From an uncultured Candidatus Saccharibacteria bacterium (GTDB lineage: Bacteria > Patescibacteriota > Minisyncoccia > Phycocordibacterales > UBA918): a stretch of 64,000 bases of DNA. A model generated the notes under the pieces. The model saw only the letters and a program-made list of their open reading frames with translations. It was not told the DNA's origin and ran no database searches. Positions 32,438 to 57,663 of the stretch are shown piece after piece; position 1 is the first letter of the stretch; every line of letters begins with the position of its first letter. Made by a program: the position numbers and the translations under genes. The stretch covers positions 1,784 to 65,783 of the forward strand of contig CAYMIV010000002.1 of the NCBI GenBank assembly GCA_964390945.1, in the 5' to 3' direction.

Positions 32438-32442
32438 CCACA

Positions 32443-32478
32443 ATCGCGCCCCAAACCGGGGCGCGATTTTGTTTTTTC
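32443..32478 (+). terminator. rho-independent terminator
   Basis: atcgcgcccc-aaac-cggggcgcgat followed by tttgtttttt. Confidence 0.75.
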
Positions 32479-32495
32479 GTGCGATACTTATAGGG

Positions 32496-36416: not shown

Positions 36417-37439
36417 CTAAAATGGATTCCGTGCGCCTCGAACCTCAAAGTGCAGGTGCGGGCCTGTTGAGCGTCCGGTATTTCCCATTCCTCCGATTGC
36501 CGCACCCGTACTGACTTTTTGTCCTACCACAACATACACGCTCGAGAGGTGGGCGTAGAGGGTCTGTGTTCCGTTTCCGTGTTTGATGACGACGTATGCT
36601 CCATATCCCCCATTCCAGCCGGTCGCTTTCGCCACAATGACTTCGCCTGAAGCTGCGGCAAGTACTGACGAGCCGACAGGTACGCCCGCGAGGTCAACGC
36701 CGTTGTAACCGTGAATGCCTTGTGTCTTTGACGCGCCAGGGAGCGGGTTTGCAAAACTGCCGCTTGCCGAAACAGAACCGCTCGTCTTCGACGGTGATAC
36801 GCTCCGTGCAATTGCGGGTGCGGCAATTGTTCCGTCGGGAACAACAATGGTGTCGCCCACCCGGATGTCGCTTGCGGAAGCGAGCTGATTGAAGTCGAGA
36901 ATGTCGTCAACATCGCCCTTGTATTTTTTCGCGATAGACGCAATGGTGTCCCCTTGTTTTACGACATGACGCACGCCGGTAATGGGCAAGATGACGAGTG
37001 TGTCCCCGGGACGAATAAGGCTTGGAGAATCAATATCGTTTGCCCAAAGCACGGTCTTCGCGCTCACACCGAACATCTCTGCAATCTGTGAGAGGGTGTC
37101 GCCCTCGCGCACGATATAAACGCTAATTTCACCGTTCGGGGATTTATTTTCCACCCCGTCATCCCGAATATCAAAAATACCCTGCGGTACCAGAGCCCCG
37201 TCTTCGATAAGGATGTCACCGCCGCCTTTTGCCGGATTCGGGTCCGCGTGAAGGGCGGCGCGGAGAAGGGGAACGGTCTGCGCATTGTAGGATTGTGTGA
37301 CTATCTCGTTTGCGCGCGCTTCGCTCCGAATGCTATAAGTCGCCGTGTATATCGCAGAATGTACAAGAACGGCAACGAGGAGGGGGACTGACAAAGAAAC
37401 CGGTGCGTGCGATACGCGCCGTAGCATACGGTATGTCAT
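36417..37439 (-). CDS. LysM-domain M23-family metallopeptidase
   Basis: TM helix, two LysM repeats (GDTLSQIAEMFGVSAKTV; GDTIASIAKKYKGDV) and M23 motifs (HxxxD region GVDLAG, HLHFE). Confidence 0.8.
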   Translation of the reverse strand: MTYRMLRRVSHAPVSLSVPLLVAVLVHSAIYTATYSIRSEARANEIVTQSYNAQTVPLLRAALHADPNPAKGGGDILIEDGALVPQGIFDIRDDGVENKSPNGEISVYIVREGDTLSQIAEMFGVSAKTVLWANDIDSPSLIRPGDTLVILPITGVRHVVKQGDTIASIAKKYKGDVDDILDFNQLASASDIRVGDTIVVPDGTIAAPAIARSVSPSKTSGSVSASGSFANPLPGASKTQGIHGYNGVDLAGVPVGSSVLAAASGEVIVAKATGWNGGYGAYVVIKHGNGTQTLYAHLSSVYVVVGQKVSTGAAIGGMGNTGRSTGPHLHFEVRGARNPF

Positions 37440-40627: not shown

Positions 40628-41569
40628 ATGCACGCCCCGCATACCGCTGAGTCCTGGTATACTACGATGATGGTTTCGATTCTCAAACAATATGCCTATG
40701 TTGTGGGGGCGCTCCTCTGCGCGTTTTTTATCATTGGTCTGGCTCTCTATGTTCGTTCCCACGAAGACGGCGGCGCAGAGGGTGGGGTTATTGCTTTGCC
40801 CGCCCCTGACCGCACCTCGCTTGCGGTGCCCGATTCAGATGGTGACGGAATTCCGGACTGGCAAAACGAACTGGTAAAGAACATCATCGCTTCGGTGAGC
40901 ACAACGAGCGCGCTCTATGACACGAACGCAACATATACGCCGCCAACAACATTTACGGGGCGTTTTGCGGAGGAGTTTTTCAAAGATTATCTCGTACGGA
41001 AGGGTTCGGGGGAAACCTTTGAAGACCCGAGCGCTCTGGTTGAAAATGCGGTGAATAGTATTGAAGCGAGCACGGGCGCTTCGAAACACTCTCGTCTCGA
41101 TATCAATCTGATTTCCGACAGCGAAACCGAGGTGCGGGAGTACGCCAATGCCCTCGGGGCGATTATACTCGCTCACCCGACAGGAAGTACTGCTAACGAG
41201 GCGGTGATATTTTCAAAGGCTCTTCAGGAACAAAACCCCGGTGGTCTTGATGCTCTAAAACCGCGCAAAGAGGCGTATGAAGCGATTCTTCGGGAAACAC
41301 TCCTTGTTCCAGTGCCCGAACCGCTCATTAGCACACACCTCGATATTTTGAATGCATATGAGGCTATTATTCTCGATATCGAGGCAATGGAATTGGCATT
41401 TGATGACCCGCTCCTTGCTCTTGCGCGCCTCAAGAAATACCCGGATGATGCCGAGGCATTTGTCCGAGCATTTAAAGAACTGTCTTCATACGTTACCTCG
41501 CGAGGCATTGTATACACTAAAGATGAGCCGGGGGCGATGCTTTACATTTTTGATGCGCTGAATATTTGA
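40628..41569 (+). CDS. hypothetical membrane-anchored protein
   Basis: TM helix near the N-terminus and a helical C-terminal domain; it precedes the T4SS-like locus. Confidence 0.35.
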   Translation: MHAPHTAESWYTTMMVSILKQYAYVVGALLCAFFIIGLALYVRSHEDGGAEGGVIALPAPDRTSLAVPDSDGDGIPDWQNELVKNIIASVSTTSALYDTNATYTPPTTFTGRFAEEFFKDYLVRKGSGETFEDPSALVENAVNSIEASTGASKHSRLDINLISDSETEVREYANALGAIILAHPTGSTANEAVIFSKALQEQNPGGLDALKPRKEAYEAILRETLLVPVPEPLISTHLDILNAYEAIILDIEAMELAFDDPLLALARLKKYPDDAEAFVRAFKELSSYVTSRGIVYTKDEPGAMLYIFDALNI

Positions 41570-41724: not shown

Positions 41725-44058
41725 ATGTCTCTGGCGCAATATAAAACCTTTGGAAAATTGTTCATTACAGGCATTCTTTCGTGTATTCTTTTACTTTCCG
41801 CATATACGCCTTTTCTCTTTCCGACACAGGTTGCTCATGCAATCCCCGTTGAAATAACAACCGATTTTTCCCTTGCGGGTCTCGGGACGTGGGCGGAGTC
41901 GATACTCACTACCGCAAACACGCTCATGCTTCGCTTCAAGGAAATGATACTCGACCCCGGCGTCTGGTTGTTAACCACAATCATCCTACAAAAACTATCG
42001 CAACAGATTATCAGTTGGATAAATTCCGGCTTTAATGGAAGTCCCGCGTTCGTCAGTGATTTTGGCGGATTTCTTCGCGACATTGCTGACAGAACCGCTG
42101 GTGAATTCATATTCGGTGGTGATTTAGGTTTTCTCTGCTCCCCGTTCAAACTCAACGTACAGTTGGCGCTCGATATCCAATATCAGCGGAGCCGGAATAC
42201 GGATTTTAAATTTGATTCCCAGTGTACGCTTTCCGGTGTTGTGTCGAATATTCAAAACTTCATGGATGGTGATTTCTTTGCGGGGGGTTGGGATGGCTGG
42301 TTTGAGATGACCCAACGCGCACAGAATAATCCGTATGGTGCGCTCGTCCTTGCGCAGGAGCAACTCGCACTGCGGGTTGCAAACACCAAGCAACGGGAGA
42401 CCAAACTGCTTGATTTCAGCAAGGGATTTTTCAGCCAGCGGCACTGTGAGAGCGGGGGGCCAGGCGACCCCCCCACATGCTGGACGGTCACACCGGGAAG
42501 TGCGATTGAGAATCAACTTAATAGCGCCCTCGATATTCCTATGGGACGACTGACTATTGCAGACGAGTTTGATGAGATTCTTGCAGCGCTGTTTGCCTAT
42601 CTTGTTCCAACCATGCTTAACGGCGCAGGCGGTCTTCTTGGACTCACGAATGGTTCGTATGGGGGAAGCAGCGGGACATACTACACACAGCTTGCAAACG
42701 CTTCGACAACTTCCTCTGCACAGTGCGGAGCGGCATCAATTGGAAGTTACACAAGTGCACCAACCACCGACCTTTGCACCTATGGGGCTCCGTCGCCCGT
42801 GTCAGGATCGGGTCCGTGGACATGGACCTGCACCACTCCGCAGGGATCTGTTTCATGTACTGCAAACACCCAGTCTGGAGTACTGCCTCCGGGTGGAGGC
42901 GGTGGGGGGGGAGGGGCACAAGATTTTTGTTCACAATACAGCGATGTTATGGAGAACACCGCCACATGGGGAGACTATTCACGTCAACTTACCGGGCCAT
43001 GGCGTACTGGTATTCTCGTATATGAATTCACTGTGCCGCAAACATTCGCAACATACTCGGGGGTCGGTTACACATCAATGGCGGAGTACCAGGGTCCGCC
43101 CCAATTGCGCCGCATGACACTTTCTCGGAGTAAGTGTGACTTCAGACCAACAGATCCGACTGGTGTAAACGGACCGTTTGAGGTCAGCACTGGGATGCAA
43201 ACGACCATATACTGGAACGTTGGAGTTGCACCGCACTCGCTTATACCAGGAGAAACCTACTACATGAATTTTGCCAACGTCGACCCGGCTACCTCGGGAA
43301 TAAGTGACTGTCCACAAAGTGCCTGCAATGCCGGATATAGCACCATATGGCCAAGCGGAGGTAGTGGTAGTGGAGGAGGCGGGGGGGGAGGTGGGGGAAC
43401 GCCGGGAAACGGTGTGTGTGGTACAGCTCAGGGTGGTTTGTACTCAAGCGCACCAACAACAAATCTCTGTTTGTCGGGCACCGCATCTCTGCCGGTACTT
43501 AACTCCACAAGCCAGTGGTTGTGGTCGTGTGGATCCGGAACCAACATAGTTACCTGCACAGCAAACAATCCCGCAGGAACCCCTTCGATATCTACAAACA
43601 TCACTTCATACGTCGCAAATCATCTTCCAATCACCTATAACAATGTGAATCCTGCAACCATGTCGTTACGAACATGGAATATCACAACCGGCGGAGTCCA
43701 CACCACAGCTCTTCCGGGGTGGTCAGGAACCAATTTTGACGTCACATACCCCTCGGGTTTCTTTGTTGCAGGAAACAGTGTCGAGATCTCCATTATAAAT
43801 ACTTCAAGTAGTGCGCGGGTCGGTAACCTTGTGAGTTTCATTATACCAAGTGGCGGTGGCGGGGGGGGAGGTGGGGGTGGCGGTGGAAGTCCTGCAATCC
43901 CCGCGTTTCCGTGGACGGTGATGGGAGTACAGTACGCCTCACAGGCACAATTTGATGCTGCGGTTGTTGCAAACACCTTCATGGGGCAGGCTGTCAGAAT
44001 AAACGGCGTCACGGTACTCTCGGGATTCGGACCGGGAATTGACGGGACATCACCATAA
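41725..44058 (+). CDS. large secreted surface protein with Gly-runs and duplicated 4-Cys modules
   Basis: Signal peptide. Two copies of the module CG.A..G.Y[ST]SAPTT[DN]LC...W.W.C....V.CTAN, each after a poly-Gly linker (GGGGGGGG, GGSGSGGGGGGGGG, GGGGGGGGGGGGG). Three poly-G(8) nucleotide tracts lie in the coding sequence. Confidence 0.5.
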   Translation: MSLAQYKTFGKLFITGILSCILLLSAYTPFLFPTQVAHAIPVEITTDFSLAGLGTWAESILTTANTLMLRFKEMILDPGVWLLTTIILQKLSQQIISWINSGFNGSPAFVSDFGGFLRDIADRTAGEFIFGGDLGFLCSPFKLNVQLALDIQYQRSRNTDFKFDSQCTLSGVVSNIQNFMDGDFFAGGWDGWFEMTQRAQNNPYGALVLAQEQLALRVANTKQRETKLLDFSKGFFSQRHCESGGPGDPPTCWTVTPGSAIENQLNSALDIPMGRLTIADEFDEILAALFAYLVPTMLNGAGGLLGLTNGSYGGSSGTYYTQLANASTTSSAQCGAASIGSYTSAPTTDLCTYGAPSPVSGSGPWTWTCTTPQGSVSCTANTQSGVLPPGGGGGGGGAQDFCSQYSDVMENTATWGDYSRQLTGPWRTGILVYEFTVPQTFATYSGVGYTSMAEYQGPPQLRRMTLSRSKCDFRPTDPTGVNGPFEVSTGMQTTIYWNVGVAPHSLIPGETYYMNFANVDPATSGISDCPQSACNAGYSTIWPSGGSGSGGGGGGGGGTPGNGVCGTAQGGLYSSAPTTNLCLSGTASLPVLNSTSQWLWSCGSGTNIVTCTANNPAGTPSISTNITSYVANHLPITYNNVNPATMSLRTWNITTGGVHTTALPGWSGTNFDVTYPSGFFVAGNSVEISIINTSSSARVGNLVSFIIPSGGGGGGGGGGGGSPAIPAFPWTVMGVQYASQAQFDAAVVANTFMGQAVRINGVTVLSGFGPGIDGTSP
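42904..42911 (+). repeat. poly-G(8) homopolymer inside the surface-protein CDS
   Basis: gggggggg encodes part of a Gly run; candidate slipped-strand site. Confidence 0.8.
43381..43388 (+). repeat. poly-G(8) homopolymer inside the surface-protein CDS
   Basis: gggggggg. Confidence 0.8.
43861..43868 (+). repeat. poly-G(8) homopolymer inside the surface-protein CDS
   Basis: gggggggg. Confidence 0.8.
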
Positions 44059-44063
44059 AAACC

Positions 44064-46028
44064 ATGCGACGCCCCTTTGACAACAAAATACAAATTGGAT
44101 TGCGGAATGCGGTTTTGGCGTTTCTTCTTGTTGGGGGCGTGCTGATCTCTCTGGGCGCAGCACAATCAGCCTGGGCAGATACTGTCGGTGATGCAGACAT
44201 AAAACCACCCACAAACGGGGTATCAAACACAACCTCATACGGCAACCTCATTGGCTACGTATTACTCACACCCGCCGCCGGCATCACCTGGCTTGGCGGG
44301 AAGGCGCTCGAGGTGAGCGTGGAGAAGTTGGTGCTTGGGATGAAAAATATATACGACGGGGGGCTTGGTTACACAGTGGAAACGGTTTGGAAAATCGTCC
44401 GCGACCTCTGCAATCTTGCATTTATATTCGGCTTCATCTATCTCGGCATTCGCACCATCTTTGATTCTGAGAGCGCCAACGTGAAGCGTATGCTCGCCTC
44501 CATCATTATCGGGGCACTCCTTATCAACTTCAGTCTCTTCTTTGCGAAGTTCATCATTGACGTCGGGAACGTATTTGCGGTCAACATCATGACCACCCTG
44601 AGCATTGACGGGTCGAGCTTGACCTACCAGATTGCTGACACGCTTGGTCTCACCACGATTTATAATCCGAAGCAGAGCGGTGCAATCCTGGGGAATCTAA
44701 CTGCCGGTGCCAATATCACGTTCTTTGTGATGGCGGCGATATTTCTTCTCGTTGCCGCATTTGTGATGTTTGCGGGGGCATTTCTCCTCATGATACGGTT
44801 TGTTGCGCTCGTTTTTATTATGATTTTTTCGCCTGTTCTTTTTGGGGCGACGGTGTTTCCACAAACCCAGCGCTACGCGAGTATGCTTTGGTCTAAACTC
44901 ATCAGTTACTCGTTCTTCGCGCCGGCCTACCTCTTTTTGCTCTATGTATCGCTCGCCGTTTTAAACGGCATCATGACATCCTTTGGTAAAGGCAAGCTGG
45001 CGGATGCACTGCAGGGAACCGCAGGCAGCGCACCGACATCGGGGATGTTTGATGTGGTTCTTCTCTTTGTCATCTGTATTCTATTCCTCATCTACTCGCT
45101 CAAGATTGCACAGCAGCTGAGCGTCTTTGGTGCCGACAGGGCGATATCACTCACAAAACAATGGAGCGGAAGAGCGACAGCAGGACTTGCGGCTGCGGCG
45201 GGGCGCGCAACCATTGGAAAATATGCGCACTCTATGTCCGAGGATGAACGTCTGAAAGATCGCGCGAGCCAAAAGGGCGTACGTGGTTTTGTTGCTCGAC
45301 AACAACTTAAGGCGAGCCGCGTTGTAGGTGATAGTTCGTTTGATGCCCGGAACACCGCCGCCGGCAAAGCATTGGGTTTTGAGGGCAGAAAGGGCGGATA
45401 TACAACGATGAAAAAGGAAGTTGAGGAGAGGGAAACTAAATTTGCTCGATCGCTAGGTGAAATAAAGGATGATGATGTTGAGGTACAGGCACGAAAGAAG
45501 GAGTTTTCTTTCGAACAATCTCGTCTTCGAACACTGGAAGAGGAATTGAATAGAATTGATAAAAATGACGTTGGGGCTCGTGTGGCAAAACGTGATGAAA
45601 TTGAGAAGCAAAAAGAGTTAATACAGAACTCACAGGTTGCGTTCGAAAGAGAAAAGCAGCGAAGAATCGTCGGGAGCACGTATTCAAAACCAAATCCCGG
45701 TGATGCTGCACTAATAAAAAAACAAAAGGACGATATTAAAACACTGATGAATGATATTAAAACGGAGTGGGATGTATACGTTCGGTTGCCTGATGTGGCA
45801 AAGGAGGGCCATCGCTCTGTGATACAAACCTTAAAAACCCAACTCGACAATCTCCAGTCAAAGCACGCTGAACTCCTCAAGAATCAGCCAGACCGTGGCT
45901 ATGCTGGTGTGCTTGAGAGTAGTAAGCGCATAACTGCTTGGCCAAAGGGTCGTATGGTAACACACGAAAGGGAGGCGGGCAGGGCGATACGAAAAACTGC
46001 CGAGAAGGGATTACCGAAAGAAAAATAA
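44064..46028 (+). CDS. VirB6/TrbL-like polytopic membrane protein with a C-terminal coiled-coil (T4SS-like)
   Basis: Signal-like N-terminus, about six TM helices in the TrbL/VirB6 arrangement, long charged coiled-coil tail. Confidence 0.5.
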   Translation: MRRPFDNKIQIGLRNAVLAFLLVGGVLISLGAAQSAWADTVGDADIKPPTNGVSNTTSYGNLIGYVLLTPAAGITWLGGKALEVSVEKLVLGMKNIYDGGLGYTVETVWKIVRDLCNLAFIFGFIYLGIRTIFDSESANVKRMLASIIIGALLINFSLFFAKFIIDVGNVFAVNIMTTLSIDGSSLTYQIADTLGLTTIYNPKQSGAILGNLTAGANITFFVMAAIFLLVAAFVMFAGAFLLMIRFVALVFIMIFSPVLFGATVFPQTQRYASMLWSKLISYSFFAPAYLFLLYVSLAVLNGIMTSFGKGKLADALQGTAGSAPTSGMFDVVLLFVICILFLIYSLKIAQQLSVFGADRAISLTKQWSGRATAGLAAAAGRATIGKYAHSMSEDERLKDRASQKGVRGFVARQQLKASRVVGDSSFDARNTAAGKALGFEGRKGGYTTMKKEVEERETKFARSLGEIKDDDVEVQARKKEFSFEQSRLRTLEEELNRIDKNDVGARVAKRDEIEKQKELIQNSQVAFEREKQRRIVGSTYSKPNPGDAALIKKQKDDIKTLMNDIKTEWDVYVRLPDVAKEGHRSVIQTLKTQLDNLQSKHAELLKNQPDRGYAGVLESSKRITAWPKGRMVTHEREAGRAIRKTAEKGLPKEK

Positions 46029-46047
46029 TTCACATTAGGCAATTTCT

Positions 46048-46635
46048 ATGGAAATAACACGTGAAGAGGCACAGAAGATGTTGGCAATGCGACTTGATCA
46101 GTATCCTGAAACAAAGGCGCTCGTCAACTCACCCTCTTTTAAGAACAATCTTGCGCAGATTGCTGAGTTTTTTCAGGTTGATTCTGCCCTTTTGCCAATT
46201 ATTGAAAACGAGGTGCTGGTCGTTTTGTGTTTCTACGCTCCACTTACGGAGCTCGCACAAAATATCAGCGAGAGTACCGGGTTGCCGGTGAACCTTTGCG
46301 AAAACATCGCAACAATGCTTAATGCTCTTGTTTTTTCTCCTGTGCATGACGACCTCGCTGCCTTTGAATTATTGTGGGAGGAGGAACTTAAGAAAACCAC
46401 AACCGTCCCCGATGCAAATTCCGACCTCAAAGAGCGGCTCGATTTGAGACCCCAGAACGCTTCCGCTCCGTGGGGAGCATCACAACCCCCCAAACCCCTC
46501 ACCCGTGAAGAACTCATGAGCGCCCTTGCGCCGAAGCGCACCATGACAAGCGACATTGAAGCGATGCGTGCAAAGACCGGGGGTGCAAGTATTGTCGAAC
46601 CGCCGCCGCCACCCGCATCGCCCTCACCACAGTGA
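46048..46635 (+). CDS. hypothetical protein (Pro-rich C-terminus)
   Basis: 195 aa ending PPPPASPSPQ; no domain recognised. Confidence 0.3.
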   Translation: MEITREEAQKMLAMRLDQYPETKALVNSPSFKNNLAQIAEFFQVDSALLPIIENEVLVVLCFYAPLTELAQNISESTGLPVNLCENIATMLNALVFSPVHDDLAAFELLWEEELKKTTTVPDANSDLKERLDLRPQNASAPWGASQPPKPLTREELMSALAPKRTMTSDIEAMRAKTGGASIVEPPPPPASPSPQ

Positions 46636-46718
46636 CATGAGCCGCCCGAGAAGGTGGCTCGTGTGTTTTCCGCACGGGGAAGCGGCTCGTATGTGTTGTT
46701 GGTGTACAATAGCGTTAT

Positions 46719-47117
46719 ATGCGCTTTGAGGTGCCGCAATTTATTGAAGTTGAAGATAAAATCGTCGGTCCTTTGACATGGCGTCAATTTGTGTATCTTG
46801 CAGGCGGTGCCGGAACTGTCATCATCCTGTTCTTTTTACTGCCTTTTTTAATCGCGGCAGTTCTCTCAATTCCGTTTGTCGCCCTCGCGGGATTTCTCGC
46901 CTTCCACCAGGTGAACAACAGACCGTTTTCGTTTTTTCTTGAGGCGTTTTTTAATTATTTCACGAAAAGCCGCCTCTATCTCTGGAAGAAAGATGTCGCA
47001 CAAACAATCGTGACAAAGCGCGAGGCGCCCGTGTCTGTGGCACCGAAAGTCATTCCCGGGAAAACAAACCTTTCTGCACTCTCGACGAGGTTGGAACTTA
47101 ACAACATTCAAAAATAG
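46719..47117 (+). CDS. VirB3/PrgI-like small two-TM protein
   Basis: 132 aa with two adjacent TM helices immediately upstream of VirB4, the typical VirB3 position and topology. Confidence 0.4.
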   Translation: MRFEVPQFIEVEDKIVGPLTWRQFVYLAGGAGTVIILFFLLPFLIAAVLSIPFVALAGFLAFHQVNNRPFSFFLEAFFNYFTKSRLYLWKKDVAQTIVTKREAPVSVAPKVIPGKTNLSALSTRLELNNIQK

Positions 47118-47118
47118 C

Positions 47119-47748
47119 ATGGATACGAACGTACCTTCCCAACAATTTCTTCCCATTCAGGATGTCCGCGACGGTATTGCGGTGCTTGAGAACGGGCAAA
47201 TGTGCATCGTGCTCCTTGCCACCTCCATCAACTTTGCGCTCAAGTCGACTGATGAGCAGGAGGCGATACTCTCCCAATTTCAGACATTTCTGAATACGCT
47301 CGATTTCTCGCTTCAGTTTTATATTCAATCCAGACGGCTCGATATCCGACCCTACATGGAAATCCTCCGCGCGCAGGAAGTCCACCAATATAATGACCTC
47401 ATGAAAGTCCAGCTCCGCGAGTACATGGAGTTTATTCGCGCGTTCACCGAAGAAGTCGACATTATGTCGAAAAATTTCTTTGTGGTAATCCCTTATACGC
47501 CCACCGCTTCCGTTGATACCTCGCAGCTCAAGAAGGTGCTCAATTTCGGAGAAAAGAAACAGAGTCCCGAGATTGACCCGGCGAAGTTTGTCGAACACAG
47601 AAGCCAACTTGAACAGCGAGTCACGGTTGTCGAGCAGGGGCTCGCGCGCATCGGTATTCGCACCGCGCCGCTCGGCACTGATGAGCTCATCGAACTCTAT
47701 TATCACATCTTTAATCCGCAGGACATGTCGTCTGCACCGAAGCGATAG
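47119..47748 (+). CDS. VirB4/TrbE/CagE-family ATPase, N-terminal domain (upstream of an in-frame TAG)
   Basis: The 209 aa resemble the VirB4 N-terminal domain; the ORF ends at TAG 47746-47748 and the same frame continues at 47752. Confidence 0.6.
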   Translation: MDTNVPSQQFLPIQDVRDGIAVLENGQMCIVLLATSINFALKSTDEQEAILSQFQTFLNTLDFSLQFYIQSRRLDIRPYMEILRAQEVHQYNDLMKVQLREYMEFIRAFTEEVDIMSKNFFVVIPYTPTASVDTSQLKKVLNFGEKKQSPEIDPAKFVEHRSQLEQRVTVVEQGLARIGIRTAPLGTDELIELYYHIFNPQDMSSAPKR

Positions 47749-47751
47749 CGT

Positions 47752-49551
47752 ATGGGAATATTTGATTTCATTGCAAAAAACATGCAGAGCAGGGGAGAGC
47801 CGGACAATCGCGCCGACGCGGACACCCCCCTCACGACGCGCGATGTTATCGCTCCGTCAGCCATCAGTGTCGGTCCGCGCAACATCAATGTGAGCGGAAA
47901 ATTCGCCCGCGTCTTCTTTGCGGTTTCATACCCTCGATATCTCAACGATGGTTGGATGGAGCCGATTCTCAACATTGAACGCGAAATAGACATCACCATT
48001 GTCGTTCATCCCATCAACACAGCGGAAACCTTGAAGAAATTTCAAAAAAAGGTTGCCGAGGTGCAGAGCCAAATCAACCTCCGCGCGGAGCAGGGTATGG
48101 TGCGCGACCCACAACTTGATGCCGCGTATCGGAACCTTGAGGAGCTCCGCGACAAACTCCAGCAAGCGGAGGAGAAACTGTTCAATGTCGGTTTGTACAT
48201 TGCGCTCTATGGAGACTCCGAGGCGGAGCTCAACAAGAGTGAGGCGGAAATTAAAAGTTCGCTCGATGCCCGCCTCATTTACATCAAACCCGCACTTTTC
48301 CAACAAGAGCAGGGTTTCCGCAGCATCATACCGACTGTTTCAGATGAACTCTTGGTGCACAGCAAATTCAACTCTTCGCCACTTTCCAGTTTTTTTCCAT
48401 TCACTTCGTTTGACCTCACCTCAAACAACGGTATTCTCTACGGGATAAACCGCCACAACTCATCGCTTATTCTTTTCGACCGCTTTTCGCTCCCCAACTA
48501 CAACTCGGTCACCTTTGCAACGTCCGGCGCAGGAAAGTCATACGCGATAAAGTTGGAAATACTCCGCTCCCTCATGTTCGGGACCGAAATTATTGTCATC
48601 GACCCGGAGCGGGAATATGAGTATTTGGCAGAGTCGGCGGGCGGCCGCTTCTTCAACATTTCACTCTCTTCGTCCCACCACATCAATCCGTTCGACCTGC
48701 CGATACCGCAACCCGATGAGAGTCCGGATGATTTGCTCCGCTCTCACATCATTGAACTTGTCGGTCTCTTTAAACTCATGCTTTCCGGTCTTACTCCGGA
48801 AGAGGACGCGATTATTGACCAGGCGCTCCGGGAGACGTACGCACTCAAAGACATCACTGGGAACACCGACTTCACCAACATGAGCCCGCCCCTTCTTTCC
48901 GATTTCGAAATGGTACTTGCGGGCATGGAGGGAAGCGAGTCGTTGGTGCAGCGCCTCTCAAAATACACAACAGGCACGTGGGCTGGGTTTGTGAATCAGC
49001 CAACCAACGTTGATATCAATCAAAAATTCATTGTCTTTTCTCTCCGTGATATGGAGGAGGAGCTGAAGACAATTGCAATGTATATCGTGACGAACCATAT
49101 CTGGGGCGCAATTCGCCGCGAACTTAAAAAACGTCTTCTCGTCATTGATGAGGCGTGGTGGATGCTCAAGTCGCCCGACACAGCGTCGTTTCTCCACAAC
49201 CTCGCCAAGCGCGGACGCAAGTACTATCTTGGACTTGCCACCATAACCCAAGATGTGGACGATTTTCTCCGTTCACCGTATGGCGTACCAATGATCACCA
49301 ACTCTTCAATGCAACTTCTCATGAAGCAATCCCCGACAGCAGTCGATACGCTCCAGAGCGTATTCAACCTCACCGACGAGGAAAAGTTTCTTCTTCTTGA
49401 ATCTGGTGTTGGTGAAGGTATTTTCTTTGCGGGCATGAAGCATGTTGCCATTAAAACAATTGCTTCGTATACAGAAGACCAGATTATCACATCAGACCCG
49501 TCTCAGCTCCTTCAGATACGGAACGCTCGGCTTGAGCTTCAAGGAAAATAA
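47752..49551 (+). CDS. VirB4/TrbE/CagE-family ATPase, ATPase domain (downstream of the in-frame TAG)
   Basis: Walker A ATSGAGKS, Walker B LLVIDEAW and other VirB4 C-terminal motifs. Combined with 47119..47748 the length is ~810 aa, typical for VirB4. Confidence 0.8.
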   Translation: MGIFDFIAKNMQSRGEPDNRADADTPLTTRDVIAPSAISVGPRNINVSGKFARVFFAVSYPRYLNDGWMEPILNIEREIDITIVVHPINTAETLKKFQKKVAEVQSQINLRAEQGMVRDPQLDAAYRNLEELRDKLQQAEEKLFNVGLYIALYGDSEAELNKSEAEIKSSLDARLIYIKPALFQQEQGFRSIIPTVSDELLVHSKFNSSPLSSFFPFTSFDLTSNNGILYGINRHNSSLILFDRFSLPNYNSVTFATSGAGKSYAIKLEILRSLMFGTEIIVIDPEREYEYLAESAGGRFFNISLSSSHHINPFDLPIPQPDESPDDLLRSHIIELVGLFKLMLSGLTPEEDAIIDQALRETYALKDITGNTDFTNMSPPLLSDFEMVLAGMEGSESLVQRLSKYTTGTWAGFVNQPTNVDINQKFIVFSLRDMEEELKTIAMYIVTNHIWGAIRRELKKRLLVIDEAWWMLKSPDTASFLHNLAKRGRKYYLGLATITQDVDDFLRSPYGVPMITNSSMQLLMKQSPTAVDTLQSVFNLTDEEKFLLLESGVGEGIFFAGMKHVAIKTIASYTEDQIITSDPSQLLQIRNARLELQGK

Positions 49552-49569
49552 TCATCTCAACACTACGCT

Positions 49570-50427
49570 ATGCGGGAGCGTGAAAATGACGAATACACAG
49601 ACGAGGAAGGGGTGCGAAATGCTGCCGAATATTCGGATTTTACCAGTGTGCCAGAGGACGGACCGGACTTGCCCGCGAATGAATCAACCATTGAACGCAT
49701 CGATGCCACATACCGCTCACTCAACCGAGGCGCGTCTGGGAGAAGGAGCAACAGATATCGTTCTCCAGCAGCACGAAGGTTGGATGAGCGACCGGGGGTT
49801 GCAAAAGACGCCTACCGAAGGGTGCGCACGGTCCGCAATAACGCCAAAACAGAGGCTTCTCGCGTCTCTACATCAACCAATGTTCGTGACGCGGCACACA
49901 AACAATTCGCCACTCCACTGTCAAAATCCTCCGCCTTTCCTGGGGGTGGTTCGGCGGCTATAAAAACCACCGGGCGTGCCGCCGCTCGTTTTCTCATTAT
50001 GCCCGCCGTGTTTGCGTATGGTGCCCAACTCGTACTTGGACTTATAGCGTTTGGTTTGGTTGGGGTTCATGTGGTTATTCAAGAAATGACGAGCGGGGGA
50101 GGTGTTGTGGCAACGGTGACTGGTTGGTTGCTCGAGGCGGGGAAGACCGTCGTCGGTTGGTTTGCTGACATTCCCGGATTTGATGAGATGGGGATGTTTT
50201 TTTGGTTTTTCGCCTTTCTTGTTGCGCTTTGTGTATTTCTCGGATACATTCTCTTTTTTCATTTTATAGGAATTTCCTTTATGGATTCTGTGACCGCAAC
50301 AATCATTCTTTTTGTTTGTATTGTGCTCTGCTACGTGATTCCGATATTCCCCGGAGCCCTTATCTGGGTGGTATATGTTGTGGCGAAAGACACAGTGAAA
50401 AGTGCGCGGGAGATTGCGGGTGTGTGA
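49570..50427 (+). CDS. hypothetical polytopic membrane protein
   Basis: Arg/Ser-rich cytoplasmic N-terminus followed by about five TM helices. Confidence 0.35.
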   Translation: MRERENDEYTDEEGVRNAAEYSDFTSVPEDGPDLPANESTIERIDATYRSLNRGASGRRSNRYRSPAARRLDERPGVAKDAYRRVRTVRNNAKTEASRVSTSTNVRDAAHKQFATPLSKSSAFPGGGSAAIKTTGRAAARFLIMPAVFAYGAQLVLGLIAFGLVGVHVVIQEMTSGGGVVATVTGWLLEAGKTVVGWFADIPGFDEMGMFFWFFAFLVALCVFLGYILFFHFIGISFMDSVTATIILFVCIVLCYVIPIFPGALIWVVYVVAKDTVKSAREIAGV

Positions 50428-50441
50428 TAAACTTTACCTAT

Positions 50442-51449
50442 ATGGGCATTTGTTCATATGCGCGCATACGGTTGTTTGTTTCTATATTCATTGTAGGTGT
50501 TTTTGTTGCGTTCTTTTCTTCTTCCGCACAAGCACAGAGTTTTACAAGCCTCTTGTCGGGGGGTGGAATTTCTCTTTCTTCACAGCCATCTTTTCCTCTT
50601 CCGCTCTATCCCGTTTCTGTTTCGCTCGAGACTCCAGGGCTAAATTTGGCGGGTTCGAATATTGCATGGTACGTTGATGGTGTTGAGTTTTCGGAAGGAA
50701 AAAATATGCGCTCAATCACCTTTACCACCGGCGAGGTGGGAACGAAGCACACAGTGCGCGCACAAATCACAAACAATGGTGGTGTATCACAGGAAACAAG
50801 CCATTCATTTGTGACAACCAAGGTTGATGTTGTGCTCGAGGCCGACACTGTGGTTCCGCTCTTGTATAAAGGGAAGCCGCTTCCCACGCCGCAAGGGAGC
50901 GTTCGCGCCATTGCGCTGCTCCATGGTTTTAATGGTGACGCAACCACTTATGGGTATGATTGGCGCCTCGATAATAATTCACTGTATGGGGGTCCGGTCC
51001 AGGGTAAGCCGTTTATGGAGTTTGAGGTGCCGCCTTTTGGGAGACACAGACTTTCGGTGCAGGTGTATGATCGCCGCGGAACGTTGGTGGGTGGGGGCGG
51101 TGTGGAAGTTGCCCCAGTACAGCCAGAACTGTATTTTTATGAGGAACATGCCCTTAGTGGGATGAATATGCGGGCGCTTACCGCAGACTTTATTCTCGAG
51201 GGTGACGAAACAACTATTGTTGCATCTCCTTATTACACCGATAATACTAATGGGGGCGCGGCGGTTCACTCCTACATGTGGTCGCTTAATGGTGATTTGG
51301 TTTCAGCAACCGGTGACCGCCCCAACACACTGACGCTTCGTCCGGTTGGAGAAGGGGAGGGTTCGGCAAGGGTTGATTGCCGTCTTTCGGTCGATCGTAC
51401 GATACCGCAACAGGTTTCGAACTCGTTTACAATTTACTACAAAAAATAA
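50442..51449 (+). CDS. hypothetical secreted protein (beta-rich)
   Basis: Signal peptide (ARIRLFVSIFIVGVFVAFFSSSAQA); start reset to the ATG at 50442. Confidence 0.35.
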   Translation: MGICSYARIRLFVSIFIVGVFVAFFSSSAQAQSFTSLLSGGGISLSSQPSFPLPLYPVSVSLETPGLNLAGSNIAWYVDGVEFSEGKNMRSITFTTGEVGTKHTVRAQITNNGGVSQETSHSFVTTKVDVVLEADTVVPLLYKGKPLPTPQGSVRAIALLHGFNGDATTYGYDWRLDNNSLYGGPVQGKPFMEFEVPPFGRHRLSVQVYDRRGTLVGGGGVEVAPVQPELYFYEEHALSGMNMRALTADFILEGDETTIVASPYYTDNTNGGAAVHSYMWSLNGDLVSATGDRPNTLTLRPVGEGEGSARVDCRLSVDRTIPQQVSNSFTIYYKK

Positions 51450-51450
51450 C

Positions 51451-52050
51451 GTGTTTTTGGGAAATTGGTGTCGAATTGTTTATGTGAGTGTGTATTTTTG
51501 GATATGTTTTGGTGTGTGTTTCTTTGTCTTTACCCTCTCTGCATTTGCCGCCGATTACATCCCCCTCACCACCCTCCCTGGTTTGTCACCAAATACGCCT
51601 GTCACGAGCATTCCTGATTTTCTCAACAGAATCTACATCAGCATTATCGGGATTGGCGCCATGTTTGGAGTGGTAAAAATCGCCATCGCGGGTTTCAAGT
51701 GGGCGTTTTCAGACATCATTACCGATAAAGCGTCGGCAAAAAAAGACATTCAGGGTGTTTTACTCGGTCTTGCAATCCTTCTTATTCCTTGGGTTGTGTT
51801 GTACACCATTAACCCTGACTTGGTTAAACTGGATGTTTTAAATTCACTAAAGAACGCCCCCTCAATGGGCACCGGTTCTGGATCTGGGTCGGGTTCGGGG
51901 TCGGGTTCAACTCAAGTAACTGCCCTTTGCTCAACTCAAACTTTTGACTCGGGTGCGTCGTGCCAAACATGGTGTAGTGCATTGTGGAATGGTTCGTATA
52001 ATGCGGGACCTCCGGCGTCTTGTACATATACAATATCTGTCACCCCTTGA
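51451..52050 (+). CDS. candidate VirB2/TrbC-like pilin (start uncertain: GTG at 51451 or 51484)
   Basis: Signal peptide, two hydrophobic helices separated by a short loop (IYISIIGIGAMFGVVKIAIAGF / VLLGLAILLIPWVVLYTI), a (GS)6 linker and a Cys-containing C-terminus. Confidence 0.35.
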   Translation: MFLGNWCRIVYVSVYFWICFGVCFFVFTLSAFAADYIPLTTLPGLSPNTPVTSIPDFLNRIYISIIGIGAMFGVVKIAIAGFKWAFSDIITDKASAKKDIQGVLLGLAILLIPWVVLYTINPDLVKLDVLNSLKNAPSMGTGSGSGSGSGSGSTQVTALCSTQTFDSGASCQTWCSALWNGSYNAGPPASCTYTISVTP

Positions 52051-52064
52051 AGTATTAAGATTTT

Positions 52065-53231
52065 ATGAAAAAATCCCTTATCATCCTCGGCGCACTCCTC
52101 ATTGTGGTGGTTCTTGTTGTGTGGGGATACCTCATGGTATTTGGAGCACCACAGAGCACGGCCGACATTTTTACCTCTTTTGGTATTCGTGGGGAAACAC
52201 AAACAGATTCTTACAACACCCCACCTCCCGACACAATCTCACCAGTAACAGACAATGAGGTTTCAGTATCGGCGCTCCGCCAAGTTGTTGTCGGTATCGA
52301 GGTTGTTGGCGCGGTATTTGTGGGAGATGTGTTGCGTTTTGTTGAGCGAGGAACCGGTCACATATATGATTTGAATATTGTTTCCGGAGAAGTTAAAAAA
52401 GTAAGCGGCACTACCATACCAAAAACAAGCAGTGCTGTGTTTTCAAAAAACGGTTCCCGCGTTGCGATTACACACGAGGATGGCGGTGCATTTCTTACCA
52501 CAATCGGGACGATTGATGGGGGTGGTGTTTTACTCAATATGGTTGGTTTGCAGCCAAATTCGGTTGAGGTTGTGTTTATTTCCGACTCTGTTGTGCGCTA
52601 CCTTGAAACACTTGCTGATGGCACGGTGGGGGTTGAACTTAATCTCGACACGGAGAAAAAAACAAAACTATTCACCACACCTCTCAAACAGTTGCGGCTT
52701 GCGGTAGCGAGCACAACCACCTATGCGTACACAACCCCTTCATCGAAACTGCTTGGTTTTGTATATACGGTTGATGGTGGTTTGCATTATGTATCAAACG
52801 GCGGATTTGGCCTTCTTCCGGTCCCATATGGTGAGGGTGTGGTCCTTTCCACACTAACTGAAAATGGTGTTTTTACTTCGAGTGTTGTGGGTGCACAAAA
52901 CACACCACTCCCTATATCCCTATTTCCGGAGAAGTGCGTCGGGAATCCGAAAACAAACACACTGACGCTTTATTGTTCTGCTCCCGCGCTCGCGCTTTCG
53001 GGTGATTATCCCGATATGTGGTACAAGGGGTTGGTTTCTCTCAAAGACAGTTTCTGGGAGGTTGACCCGGGTACAAACCAATCATTTCTTTTGAGTGATA
53101 TGTTTTTTGAGGGTGGGCGCGAGATTGATGTTTCAAGTATTGGTGTAAGTGTGGACGGATCCTTCGTCTATATGATAAATAAAAACGACAACTCCTTGTG
53201 GTTGTATGATACAACCACACGATCCGAGTAG
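52065..53231 (+). CDS. hypothetical secreted/membrane-anchored beta-rich protein
   Basis: N-terminal TM/signal segment; repetitive beta-strand-like sequence. Confidence 0.35.
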   Translation: MKKSLIILGALLIVVVLVVWGYLMVFGAPQSTADIFTSFGIRGETQTDSYNTPPPDTISPVTDNEVSVSALRQVVVGIEVVGAVFVGDVLRFVERGTGHIYDLNIVSGEVKKVSGTTIPKTSSAVFSKNGSRVAITHEDGGAFLTTIGTIDGGGVLLNMVGLQPNSVEVVFISDSVVRYLETLADGTVGVELNLDTEKKTKLFTTPLKQLRLAVASTTTYAYTTPSSKLLGFVYTVDGGLHYVSNGGFGLLPVPYGEGVVLSTLTENGVFTSSVVGAQNTPLPISLFPEKCVGNPKTNTLTLYCSAPALALSGDYPDMWYKGLVSLKDSFWEVDPGTNQSFLLSDMFFEGGREIDVSSIGVSVDGSFVYMINKNDNSLWLYDTTTRSE

Positions 53232-53233
53232 TT

Positions 53234-53983
53234 TTATTGGTGGGATGTTTGTTTGAGGCCTTTATGCCGAACCACATATTCCTGCAAAATTGCCATGATG
53301 TTGCTCACAAAGAAGTAAAGTGCAATGGCGCTTGAGATTGAGTATGCGAAGAATGTAATAAGAATTGGCATCATGTATCTCATCTGCATGTTCATACTTC
53401 TTGATATATCTTCTTTGAAGTTTGGTGCTGCTTTGGGGTCGCGTGGCTCTGTTTTTGGTATTGAGAGGTGTCCATGGAGGTACTGTGTTGCGCCTGCAAG
53501 GAGCGCGAGTGGTAAACTTTTTGCGGTGATGTCGAGAATCCCAAAGAAAAGCATTGTAATTTTTTCCGGGTTTGGAACAAACCCATAGAGTAGGGCTGTG
53601 TTTATATTGGGGAGCGGAACCCCTCCTCCATTTGAAACAGCGAGATAGAGCGCAATGATGATGGGAATTTGAATAAAGAGGAGAAGGATGCTCAAGAATG
53701 GATTTACTCCCGCGTTTTGATAGAGCTCCATTGTTTTAAGAGCGAGCTCCTCCTTTTTTTCCTTATATTTTTCTTTGAGGTCTTTGAGTTTTGGTTCAAG
53801 ATCCCTCATTGCAATTTGTGTTTTTGCCGCCTTAAGAGAGATGGGGAGGAGAATGAGTTTTACCAACACCACAGTGAGGATAATGGCAATCCCGACGTCG
53901 CCTTTTGGAACGGCGTCAATAAAGAAAACGAGTGTGTTGTATACCGGGTCAAAGAATATGGTATGCCAAATTGTTCCAAACAT
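53234..53983 (-). CDS. yidC: membrane protein insertase YidC/Oxa1 (short form)
   Basis: Conserved YidC core helices; lies in the rpmH-rnpA-yidC operon context. Confidence 0.85.
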   Translation of the reverse strand: MFGTIWHTIFFDPVYNTLVFFIDAVPKGDVGIAIILTVVLVKLILLPISLKAAKTQIAMRDLEPKLKDLKEKYKEKKEELALKTMELYQNAGVNPFLSILLLFIQIPIIIALYLAVSNGGGVPLPNINTALLYGFVPNPEKITMLFFGILDITAKSLPLALLAGATQYLHGHLSIPKTEPRDPKAAPNFKEDISRSMNMQMRYMMPILITFFAYSISSAIALYFFVSNIMAILQEYVVRHKGLKQTSHQ

Positions 53984-53993
53984 AGTGGTGATT

Positions 53994-54305
53994 TTATGAT
54001 TGTGAGACGAGGTTGGTAATGTGGGCGCGCAGTTCCGGTGGGGTAAGTGTGTTGATTGGTTTTTTCAGTATAAAAATATATACGCCGTTTTTTATTCCTG
54101 TTGTTCGTATTGTGTTGTATATTCGCCGGCGTGCTCTGTTTCGTTCAGCCGCAAGTTTTACGATTTTTTTTGGTATTACCACAGCGCAATGCAGTTTTGG
54201 GTGTTGTGAGTAAACACAATAGAGGTGTGGTGCGTGCGTGCGTCTCCCTGACGAAAAAAAACGATTGAACACCTCTCTCGTCAATCGTTCTTTTTTCTTC
54301 ATCAT
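53994..54305 (-). CDS. rnpA: RNase P protein component
   Basis: Basic ~103-aa protein with the RnpA-like motif, sitting between rpmH and yidC. Confidence 0.75.
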   Translation of the reverse strand: MMKKKERLTREVFNRFFSSGRRTHAPHLYCVYSQHPKLHCAVVIPKKIVKLAAERNRARRRIYNTIRTTGIKNGVYIFILKKPINTLTPPELRAHITNLVSQS

Positions 54306-54320
54306 GGGTATAGTCTACGA

Positions 54321-54458
54321 CTATACACTAAGTTTTGCACGGCCTTTTTTGCGCCGCGCTTTGAGAACTTTTTTTCCTTTTTTTGTTGCGGAGCGCACAA
54401 GATACCCGTGTGTTGTCGCTCGCTTCTTCTTTTTTGGTTGGTATGTTTGTTTGGACAT
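54321..54458 (-). CDS. rpmH: 50S ribosomal protein L34
   Basis: [45 protein letters not shown], 45 aa. The reported ORF is a spurious 5' extension, so the start is reset to the ATG at 54458. Confidence 0.9.
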
Positions 54459-54635
54459 GTTGTTTGTCTGATTTCGCCACTCTACACTACATGGAAAACA
54501 AAAGCAATCTTTTTTTGTTCTCCACACGTTGTACACAGTGGTTGTGCAGGTTTGTTTTTTATATGGCGAATAATCAACTATATTTACACTTTTCCACAGG
54601 TCGGTATAATGTCTGTCATTACATTTGTTTTTCAG

Positions 54636-56024
54636 ATGAACACTATGAGTTATCTCCCAAACACATCGACAAGTATTGTTCAAACGGAACAAATTGATGT
54701 TAAAAAACTTTGGGATGATGCGCTTGTTAATATCGAACTCTCGATAACACCAGCAAACTTTAAGACGTGGTTTCGGGACACCTATATTCTCTCCCTTGAA
54801 GACGGCACTGTTTCACTTGCTGTTCCGAGTGTTTTTGTCCGGGATTGGGTCAGTGATAAGTTTCAGGCCCTTATTTTAAAGACGCTTCGTGATTTAACCC
54901 CGCATGTAAGGAGTATTGAGTATGCGGTTGTGCAGAGAAGCGATAGAAAAATAGAATCCTCAAAAAAACAAACAGTGAATGCGGCTCTTCCTCTCGAAGA
55001 GTATTACATAAACAAGAGCGACAATTTGAACCCAAAGTATGTATTTGAAACTTTTGTTGTCGGTCCTTTTAATGAGTTGTCTCATGCGGCGGCAAAAACT
55101 GTTGTTCTAAAGCCGGGTATTGCATACAACCCCCTCTTTATATATGGAAAGACTGGGCATGGAAAAACCCACCTTATTCAAGCGGTTGGGAATCAGTTGA
55201 AACGCGTTGGGAAGAAGGTATTCTATGTGACGAGTGAGCGTTTTGCGGTTGATTATATGAATTCTCTCCAGAGTGGAACGGCGAATAATTTTAAGGATAA
55301 ATATCGCCAATATGATGTTTTGATTATGGACGACGTACAGTTTCTTGCAAATAAAGAAAAAACACAAGAAGAACTCTTCCATCTTTTTAATGCAATGCAC
55401 GACAACAACAAACAAATTGTTTTCTCGAGCGATGTACATCCTGCGCTTATGTTAAATATGGAAGAGCGCCTGCGTTCTCGTTTTTCACAAGGAATGATCG
55501 TTGATATCCCGTCCCCTGATACGGAGTCGCGTGGGGCTATTTTAAAGTCAAAAGCCGCCCAAAACGGCATAACCTTATCAAATGATGTTGTTGACCATCT
55601 TTCTGGAGTAATAGAGGGAAATATTCGAGAGCTTGAGGGTGCTTTAAATACCATTCTCTGTCAATCACAACTCCTTGGTAGGACACTCACACTCGATGAG
55701 GTGAAGGTTCTTATTAAAAATAGTACACGGCCGAGAAAATCTCTCGCTGTTTCCGATGTTGTTGACAAAATCGCCCGTTTTTATGATGTTGAACCAGCGA
55801 GTATTTATGAAAAAACAAGGAGGAAGGAGGTTGTAAAACCCCGTCAGCTCATTATGTACATTCTCCGTGAAGATTTTCAAGTTTCATACCCTGCTATCGG
55901 TCAAAAATTGGGTGGTCGTGACCACACTACAGTTATTCACTCGTGTGAAAAAATAAAGCGGGAACTTATTGGCGACACAGACCTCGAGGATGAGGTTTCC
56001 CAAATACGCACACTCCTTAAGTAA
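54636..56024 (+). CDS. dnaA: chromosomal replication initiator DnaA
   Basis: AAA+ Walker [11 protein letters not shown] and the C-terminal DNA-binding domain. The start is reset to the ATG at 54636; a TATAAT box at 54604-54609 argues against the upstream in-frame ATG at 54609. Confidence 0.9.
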
Positions 56025-56275
56025 GGTGTGGAAAATGTGTGTTTTGTTCTTTACAGATTGTGGTTTTCCTGTGTTCTTTCGTTTCACTCTATAAAAATAA
56101 ATTATTTATAGGGCGTTACTCACATTATTATTATTCCTTTGTTTATAAAATACACATATTTATACAAAATTGTTTTAAAAAATATGTTGTATTTATTGTA
56201 TAAAATCCACAATCCACACATCCACACAACTAATAATAAAATTGTTTTTTAAAAAAAGAAAAATAAAAACACACT
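56025..56275. promoter_or_regulatory. candidate oriC (DnaA boxes plus AT-rich unwinding region) between dnaA and dnaN
   Basis: TTTTCCACA on the reverse strand at 56027-56035; tandem aaTCCACAa x3 at 56203-56228; the surrounding AT content is above 80%. More DnaA-box-like 9-mers lie upstream of dnaA (TTCTCCACA ~54527, TTTTCCACA ~54588). Confidence 0.55.
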
Positions 56276-57364: not shown

Positions 57365-57366
57365 TA

Positions 57367-57660
57367 ATGAGAATAAAAAAAGAAGGAGGACCCATTAAAA
57401 TAAACAACCTCCTGGATGTTTATAAAAAAAGACTCAAGGCGCCGGAGAGAACAGTAATACAAACATTCCAAGAGGTGGTTTCTGATATTTTAAAAATATC
57501 TATTCCCGACGCACAGTGTTCCTATTCACCAAACACAAAAACACTCACTATTCGAAACAACGGTCAAGTTCGGAGCGAAATACTCATGCATAAAAAGGAA
57601 ATACTCACACACCTTAAAGGGAGATTAGGGGAAAAAAACACTCCAAAAGAGGTGTTATAG
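57367..57660 (+). CDS. small protein immediately downstream of dnaN (possibly DUF721/DciA-like)
   Basis: The position right after dnaN and the ~97-aa size fit DUF721-family proteins; the sequence-level match is not verified. Confidence 0.3.
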   Translation: MRIKKEGGPIKINNLLDVYKKRLKAPERTVIQTFQEVVSDILKISIPDAQCSYSPNTKTLTIRNNGQVRSEILMHKKEILTHLKGRLGEKNTPKEVL

Positions 57661-57663
57661 GAA

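Follow-up and report, generated by a model that had tools for sequence, protein, structure and literature searches.

What kind of machine is encoded by the ten closely packed genes at positions 41725-53231 (+ strand) of the 64-kb window of Patescibacteria DNA analysed here (the window being the whole stretch), and does it transfer its own DNA or serve another purpose? A first-pass annotation had read these genes as a type IV secretion system (T4SS) locus, and had argued for a chromosomally fixed apparatus and against a mobilisable integrative and conjugative element (ICE). The locus is intact, has been inherited vertically and is held by strong purifying selection, and mobility genes do not lie nearby. 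It is very likely to be a chromosomal T4SS or pilus system of the Patescibacteria clade. The explanation favoured as a whole, which is held with good confidence, is of a T4SS descended from the MPF-FATA group and serving an epibiotic lifestyle, rather than self-transfer of DNA. The locus comprises a membrane platform (VirB6 and PrgI/VirB3), an ATPase made of two polypeptides (TrsD and VirB4), a VirB2-like pilin, and envelope or surface proteins, in the following order:

41725..44058 (+), secreted or surface protein and candidate adhesin, 777 amino acids (aa), conserved N-terminal domain behind a signal peptide
44064..46028 (+), VirB6/TrbL-like polytopic membrane protein, 654 aa, with a TrbL match
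46048..46635 (+), fast-evolving soluble protein with a proline-rich tail, 195 aa, without a family match
46719..47117 (+), PrgI/VirB3-like small membrane protein, 132 aa, PF12666
47119..47748 (+), TrsD-like protein, 209 aa, with NCBIfam matches to the VirB4 N-terminal region
47752..49551 (+), VirB4-type ATPase, 599 aa, matching P-loop_TraG and 4AG5
49570..50427 (+), fast-evolving membrane protein, 285 aa, with 3-4 transmembrane (TM) segments and without a family match
50442..51449 (+), secreted protein with three Ig-like domains, 335 aa, ATG at 50442
51451..52050 (+), VirB2/TrbC-like T4SS pilin, 199 aa, GTG start, with a T4SS_pilin match
52065..53231 (+), N-terminally anchored TolB-like beta-propeller, 388 aa, with a profile match to TolB

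All ten open reading frames (ORFs) were intact and shared one strand, with intergenic gaps of 5, 19, 83, 1, 3, 18, 14, 1 and 14 bp; the operon-like packing is real. Nine co-directional genes had been counted in the first-pass annotation, of which the direction was correct and the number was not, and the spacing it gave (mostly 2-20 bp) agrees with these gaps. The terminators that it placed at both ends were not recovered. Across the scan, 20 terminator-like hairpins were found against 18.2 expected in shuffled sequence, which is no enrichment; there was none in the 155-bp gap upstream of 41725; and the 3' end of the locus meets the convergent yidC gene, with 2 bp between the stop codons. Promoter and terminator scans produced nothing above chance.

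The VirB4 ORF matched P-loop_TraG with 83 bits, as well as AAA_10, DUF87 and CagE_TrbE_VirB, and it matched the solved C-terminal domain of VirB4 (4AG5, E = 4e-42). Among orthologues, the Walker A motif (ATSGAGKS) was kept in 78 of 79 and Walker B (LLVIDEAW) in 77 of 79. There were over 8000 relatives; the 120 closest listed were almost all 593-608 aa long, and the closest listed homologues were 80-88% identical, with every given source name belonging to Paceibacteria/Minisyncoccia. A 100%-identical sequence (P0001) is already present in NCBI. Judged by this similarity listing, the protein is a VirB4-type ATPase with nearest homologues of Patescibacteria type.

An in-frame TAG at 47746-47748, followed by one codon and then an ATG, divides the 209-aa and 599-aa ORFs, and VirB4 had initially been described as split. 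The possibility of a nonsense mutation or pseudogene was rejected, because the relatives also have two genes, and in all three frame offsets: TrsD (~210 aa) and VirB4 (~600 aa) were separate ORFs in 78 of 78 related loci, usually with a gap of 1-10 nt, and the frame-offset classes comprised 37, 24 and 17 loci. The arrangement is therefore not a broken gene but a conserved gene pair. The 209-aa protein matched part of the VirB4_plasma family (NF045975, Mbov_0397; positions 112-235 of 894, E = 8e-9), the beginning of the CD1110 VirB4 family (positions 2-105 of 752, E = 4e-6) and the TrsD/TraD family (NF041427 TrsD, E = 3e-4). One orthologue (L001) matched PF26593 (TraC-like), and the single sequence found no match among PDB sequences. 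By these alignments, the TrsD-like protein represents the opening portion of the canonical N-terminal domain of VirB4, and it has a gene of its own. The TrsD and VirB4 pair has been reported as the most abundant T4SS component of Patescibacteria (PMC12102498).

The remaining core components were identified with profile hidden Markov models (HMMs). PrgI/VirB3 scored above its cut-off (PF12666 PrgI, 46.1 bits against 27), was found in 81 of 82 fetched loci, and is presumed to be the membrane anchor for VirB4. VirB6 scored 25.1 bits against TrbL in Pfam, just under the curated cut-off of 25.9, and the pilin scored 23.9 bits against T4SS_pilin, where the cut-off is 26.6, with a TrbC match too. These borderline scores are secured at family level by the numbers of orthologues that match: TrbL was matched by 13 of 49 VirB6 orthologues (best E = 2e-8), and PF18895 by 33 of 37 pilin orthologues (best E = 7e-11). 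The pilin also matched weakly to the Mbov_0395 pilin-like ICE protein in NCBIfam (E = 1.5e-3). VirB6 has at least five hydrophobic segments (residues 110-355), followed by a long, charged, cytoplasmic C-terminal tail that is probably coiled-coil. Similarity to VirB6, VirB3 and VirB2, on which the first-pass annotation had made its interpretation depend, was thus detected, and its assignments of VirB6-like, VirB3/PrgI-like, VirB4 and pilin proteins were sustained by both HMM matches and orthologue families.

In alignment, the pilins consisted of a signal peptide, a hydrophobic helix, a basic loop (AKKDI), a second hydrophobic helix and a tail. Orthologues ranged from 112 to 461 aa in total length, and their C-terminal tails were highly variable and often contained cysteine. 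F-family pilins have their C-terminus on the outer face; by analogy, the variable tails would decorate the surface of the pilus.

Comparison with related genomes showed how the locus has been inherited. One genome per species was scanned (568 relatives), and the best 80 loci, which came from Paceibacteria/Kaiserbacteria-type metagenome-assembled genomes, were used. By tblastn, the shared order in the upstream half was uvrD, ksgA, the 313-aa gene, the 777-aa gene, virB6, the slot of the 195-aa protein and prgI; in the downstream half it was trsD, virB4, a second slot (that of the 285-aa protein), the Ig-like gene, the pilin and TolB-like genes, yidC (-), rnpA (-), dnaA and dnaN. The synteny comparison proposed at the outset therefore found the same gene order next to the origin genes: the whole arrangement beside yidC-rnpA-dnaA-dnaN recurs in about 80 species-level Paceibacteria genomes, and the location context on the dnaA side was the same in about 55 related loci. 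The neighbouring features in the window are these:

36417..37439 (-), LysM and M23 peptidoglycan hydrolase, with two LysM domains and Peptidase_M23, membership uncertain
40628..41569 (+), possible accessory gene for a TM-anchored 313-aa protein, syntenic, separated from the locus by the 155-bp gap
53234-53983 (-), yidC, Pfam 60KD_IMP
53994-54305 (-), rnpA, Pfam Ribonuclease_P
54321-54458 (-), rpmH, by its L34 sequence
about 54636-56024 (+), dnaA, by its DnaA sequence
56276-57364 (+), dnaN, by its DnaN sequence

The proximity to the origin core that had been claimed is accurate, in that the locus adjoins yidC-rnpA-rpmH and ends ~1.4 kb from dnaA. Only scattered DnaA boxes with one mismatch (54518, 54590, 56027) were found around dnaA, so origin proximity rests on gene synteny and not on a mapped origin. 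VirB4 was the best-conserved gene of the neighbourhood, with a mean identity of 73% for the best high-scoring segment pair; the corresponding values were 68% for DnaA, 60% for UvrD, 51% for YidC and 45% for DnaN. Furthermore, VirB4 identity tracked that of DnaA, DnaN, UvrD, YidC and KsgA (Spearman rho = 0.75-0.82, p < 1e-9). Being best conserved, and diverging in step with housekeeping genes, VirB4 has the profile of a core gene that is passed on vertically and held by strong purifying selection, and not that of an ICE or a remnant.

Pfam scans of all ORFs of at least 130 aa across the 64 kb, plus a few smaller ones, identified no relaxase, type IV coupling protein (T4CP; VirD4 or TcpA), VirB11 or Rep in the window. 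The families found were those of housekeeping genes (among them ClpP, RNase Y, CorA, CCA-adding enzyme, PNPase, ComM-like, UvrD, KsgA, YidC, RnpA, DnaA, DnaN, RuvB and PBP), together with several ORFs without a family match. The statement in the first-pass annotation that mobility genes are missing was correct for relaxase, coupling protein, VirB11 and plasmid replication gene; for the integrase it needs the qualification that a XerC/D-like tyrosine recombinase, the only recombinase found, is encoded 13 kb upstream at 27693-28718. The absence of VirD4 holds for the 64-kb window only. No tRNA gene or att-like direct repeat flanked the locus, and an Rfam scan found only four tRNAs, all far upstream. 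The GC content of the locus was like that of the upstream chromosome. Domains of the outer-membrane core of MPF-T type systems (VirB7, VirB9, VirB10) were absent from the window. A chromosomally fixed apparatus, as opposed to a mobilisable ICE, is accordingly supported by synteny, by the correlation of VirB4 with housekeeping genes, by the lack of tRNA or att flanks and by the matching GC content.

Nearly all Patescibacteria, which are ultra-small bacteria dependent on a host, have such a chromosomal cluster beside the replication origin. The gene set, the MPF-FATA descent, the lack of a relaxase and the location close to dnaA are already published (PMC12102498; Wang et al. 2023, PMC10633639; and a 2025 review of the topic, PMC12857230). 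In a survey of 3,035 Patescibacteria genomes (Quinonero-Coronel et al. 2025; PMC12102498), VirB4 was found in 2,417, forming a clade nested in MPF-FATA, and TrsD, PrgI/VirB3, VirB6 and VirB2-like pilins were encoded near virB4. The neighbours of virB4 in Paceibacteria were dnaA, dnaN, rnpA, ksgA and rpmH, for which the authors suggest a gene-dosage benefit, and VirB1-type matches with LysM/M23 domains were linked to it. The window matches this description point by point, from the set of VirB4, TrsD, PrgI/VirB3, VirB6 and VirB2-like pilin with no relaxase nearby, to the same origin-side neighbours and the linked LysM/M23 hydrolase. There was no essential difference; adhesins such as PrgB were not detected in the survey, whereas a 777-aa candidate is present here.

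The T4SS of Southlakia epibionticum (SEML1_0006-0019; PMC10633639) is likewise Gram-positive-like, includes pilin genes, is positioned at the start of the chromosome and has neither relaxase nor coupling protein in its cluster. It differs in belonging to another class, Saccharimonadia, in having an array of six divergent pilins where the window has one, and in having peptidase and lysozyme genes directly downstream of its virB4. In Southlakia, the T4SS and pilin genes were essential for epibiotic growth, while the T4CP was non-essential (PMC10633639). The Trs/Tra systems of pGO1 and pIP501 (MPF-FATA) share the architecture of a single-membrane cell and encode the N-terminal piece of VirB4 as a separate small protein beside it (TrsD/TraD and TrsE/TraE); however, they are carried on plasmids, have a relaxase, coupling protein, VirB1 hydrolase and VirB8-like proteins, and are without a VirB2-like pilin. 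Mycoplasma ICEs are similar in that the TrsD-like protein matches the N-terminal region of Mbov_0397 VirB4 and the pilin weakly matches Mbov_0395, but those genes reside on mobile elements with their own integration and transfer functions, and the scores obtained here were far below the equivalog cut-offs.

The F-type pilus offers a functional analogy only. It too combines a VirB4-family ATPase, without a nearby VirB11, with a VirB2-family pilin; VirB4/TraC alone powers F-pilus assembly, while export normally needs a coupling protein too. The F system crosses two membranes and depends on many additional Tra proteins, and homology with the present locus is not known beyond VirB4, pilin, VirB3 and VirB6.

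From these comparisons, a sequence of action can be proposed. TrsD would supply the missing N-terminal piece of VirB4, which would dock on PrgI and VirB6 and use ATP to extract pilin from the membrane; the extracted pilin would then polymerise into a thin pilus that crosses the cell wall. Contact with the host cell would be made by two outward-facing parts, the variable tail of the pilin and the 777-aa protein with its swappable lectin or Ig modules, and the Ig-like protein and TolB-like propeller would act as envelope accessories. The apparatus would thereby serve an epibiotic lifestyle through host contact and possibly macromolecule exchange, not the self-transfer of DNA. Pilus assembly is the minimal function that the gene set can support, and there is a reasonable, if not strong, expectation that it is the core activity.

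The other proteins of the locus bear on this contact with the host. Behind its signal peptide, the 777-aa protein has a conserved N-terminal domain (~310 aa) that matched nothing in Pfam or NCBIfam, and its C-terminal part comprises two Cys-rich motifs of ~45 aa and three poly-Gly linkers. Within the family the C-terminal part varied in content and length, orthologues being 161 to 816 aa long; F5/8-type-C lectin domains occurred in 5 of 46 orthologues, and Ig-like or fn3 domains in others. Such variation is in keeping with a domain that acts as a tether and displays interchangeable binding modules, making the protein a candidate adhesin. The window contains only three runs of eight G residues (42904-42911, 43381-43388 and 43861-43868), and all of them fall within the poly-Gly linkers of this gene; they could let the candidate adhesin undergo phase variation by strand slippage, or could be hotspots of assembly error. 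Two of the homologues listed for the 777-aa protein (P0172, P0159) showed a short N-terminal match to PF13605 (DUF4141; 31.5 and 28 bits, cut-off 30), a family that occurs in conjugative transposon proteins of Bacteroidetes; this is a weak lead to a possible conjugation-related origin of the domain.

The 195-aa and 285-aa proteins had no family match in Pfam or NCBIfam. A TM-free ORF of ~200 aa occupied the first slot in 63 of 63 related loci, with sequence similarity to the 195-aa protein detectable in only 6 of 82 fetched loci. The second slot was examined in 73 related loci and contained an ORF of ~220 aa, which in 86% of them had at least two TM-like segments; in the 285-aa protein itself, the TM segments follow a basic N-terminal half that is probably disordered. 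The 335-aa Ig-like protein has a signal-peptide-like N-terminus and weak BiPBP_C and PKD matches; its orthologue profile matched the Ig-like domains of phage Hoc (E = 3e-5), and it was found in 77 of 82 fetched loci. The 388-aa protein has an N-terminal TM segment, its orthologue profile matched TolB chains in PDB (E = 4e-6), and it was found in 69 of 82 loci. The order of the pilin and TolB-like genes flips between loci (38 versus 17), with both genes kept.

Outside the ten genes, two neighbours may contribute. The 313-aa gene was conserved in 47 loci, where it lies between ksgA and the gene for the 777-aa protein; its product has a TM anchor and a DxDxDG Ca-loop motif, appeared helical when its secondary structure was judged by eye, and, beyond the calmodulin-like Ca-binding loop, had no Pfam, NCBIfam or PDB sequence match. 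The gene for the LysM and M23 hydrolase, on the opposite strand 4 kb upstream, was syntenic wherever related loci extended that far, and is a candidate for a VirB1-like role in opening the wall. Searches with Pfam, NCBIfam and PDB sequence profiles revealed no VirB8-like (NTF2-fold) protein.

The tentative roles of the 777-aa, TolB-like and Ig-like proteins and of the tailed pilins slightly extend the published description. Taken together they raise the possibility, put forward here tentatively, that the Paceibacteria T4SS carries its own undescribed host-recognition module, setting which host cell the epibiont attaches to. Such a module would consist of the novel N-terminal domain of the 777-aa family tethering swappable lectin or Ig modules, the variable C-terminal tail of the pilin decorating the pilus, and the TolB-like propeller with the Ig-like protein; phase variation might come in addition from the three G-tracts of the candidate adhesin gene.

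Two rival explanations dispute the interpretation of the locus as a fixed apparatus. That the locus is what remains of an integrated conjugative element in decay might be suspected from the in-frame TAG between the 209-aa and 599-aa ORFs and from the many canonical T4SS parts that are absent. This is effectively refuted, given that the two-gene TrsD/VirB4 arrangement is universal among relatives with differing frame offsets, that all ORFs and the ATPase motifs are intact, that VirB4 is conserved more than DnaA, and that boundaries of an element are missing. A working conjugation or mobilisation system, with relaxase, oriT and coupling protein elsewhere in the genome, would agree with the homology of the machinery to Gram-positive conjugation systems; only 64 kb of the genome was examined, and VirD4-like genes are reported for the majority of Patescibacteria genomes, as a rule at a distance from virB4 (PMC12102498). 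It is nevertheless very improbable, since neither relaxase nor T4CP was found in the window, relaxases occurred in only 103 of the 3,035 Patescibacteria genomes (PMC12102498), the T4CP of Southlakia was non-essential where its T4SS was essential (PMC10633639), and the locus has descended vertically while staying at one site of the chromosome.

Two further alternatives accept the identity of the system and differ over its main task. Import of host DNA, nucleotides or other macromolecules, in the manner of ComB or Ced, is favoured by the authors of the genome survey (PMC12102498); it is consistent with the lack of a local coupling protein, which export systems normally need, with the lack of nucleotide synthesis in Patescibacteria, and with comEC being dispensable for growth in Southlakia (PMC10633639, PMC12857230). 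Conversely, none of the genes in the locus is for a component that binds or processes DNA, and the accessory sets of ComB and Ced are different; import as the main task is possible, but less likely than not. Export of effector proteins, delivered either inside the host cell or to its surface, has been suggested for the Southlakia T4SS, which is without relaxase and coupling protein (PMC10633639), and exporters lacking a T4CP do exist in Bordetella Ptl and Brucella VirB (PMC12102498, PMC12857230). As the main task here it seems rather unlikely, there being no candidate effector or secretion signal identified in the locus and no coupling protein nearby.

Several observations weigh against the favoured explanation, an MPF-FATA-descended T4SS for the epibiotic lifestyle. 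The VirB6 and pilin of this genome fall just below curated HMM cut-offs, and the locus itself is without a recognised VirB8-like or clear VirB1-like component. A coupling protein may be encoded elsewhere in the genome. Essentiality of the T4SS has been shown only in Saccharimonadia, a class other than Paceibacteria. Lastly, the conserved N-terminal domain of the 777-aa protein had no structural match, and the evidence for its role as an adhesin comes only from the domain content of orthologues.

Several other features of the window were recorded. A candidate VirB11 at 62839-63909 (-), the only PF00437 ATPase of the window, was rejected, as it scored 365-395 bits with PilB/GspE against 54 bits with VirB11. 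This ORF, which also matched T2SSE with 334 bits and whose N-terminus is probably cut by the end of the window, is a PilB/GspE-type type IV pilus ATPase; another pilus system, not related to the T4SS, therefore lies ~10 kb away from it. Over rpmH-dnaA-dnaN (54000-58000), GC content drops from ~0.50 to 0.36-0.41, and GC skew turns from positive to negative near 56 kb, which is a maximum of cumulative skew and not the minimum usual at an origin. A perfect DnaA box (TTATCCACA) occurs directly beside a box with one mismatch at 13595-13613 (-), ~41 kb from dnaA, in the intergenic region between the genes for the CCA-adding enzyme and an ExoIII-like protein. The tRNA-Arg(tcg) gene at 11617-11689 (-) overlaps the called start of the CCA-adding enzyme ORF (11617-13239, +), so the true start of that enzyme lies further downstream.

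Three extracytoplasmic function (ECF)-type sigma-70 family factors were encoded within 16 kb (7856-8500, -; 19671-20579, +; 23639-24178, +), which is many for a small genome, and one of them was followed by a DUF5667 protein. Between 24555 and 27648, two large ORFs without a Pfam match (402 aa, -; 412 aa, +) were followed by a leucine-rich-repeat protein (27052-27648), and this is a possible surface or host-interaction cluster beside the XerC/D-like recombinase gene. A 692-aa ORF (32376-34454, +), also without a Pfam match, directly follows the PNPase gene, its mechanical start overlapping the PNPase end by 62 bp, and precedes genes for a DksA/TraR-type zinc-finger protein and a ComM-like protein.

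The window provides a clean and complete Paceibacteria example of the Patescibacteria T4SS, and introduces no new principle. Its residual value lies in the linked, unannotated envelope proteins, namely the candidate adhesin, the TolB-like propeller, the Ig-like protein and the tailed pilin. The system to which they are linked is one of the few conserved machines that are likely to explain how ultra-small bacteria live on other cells.

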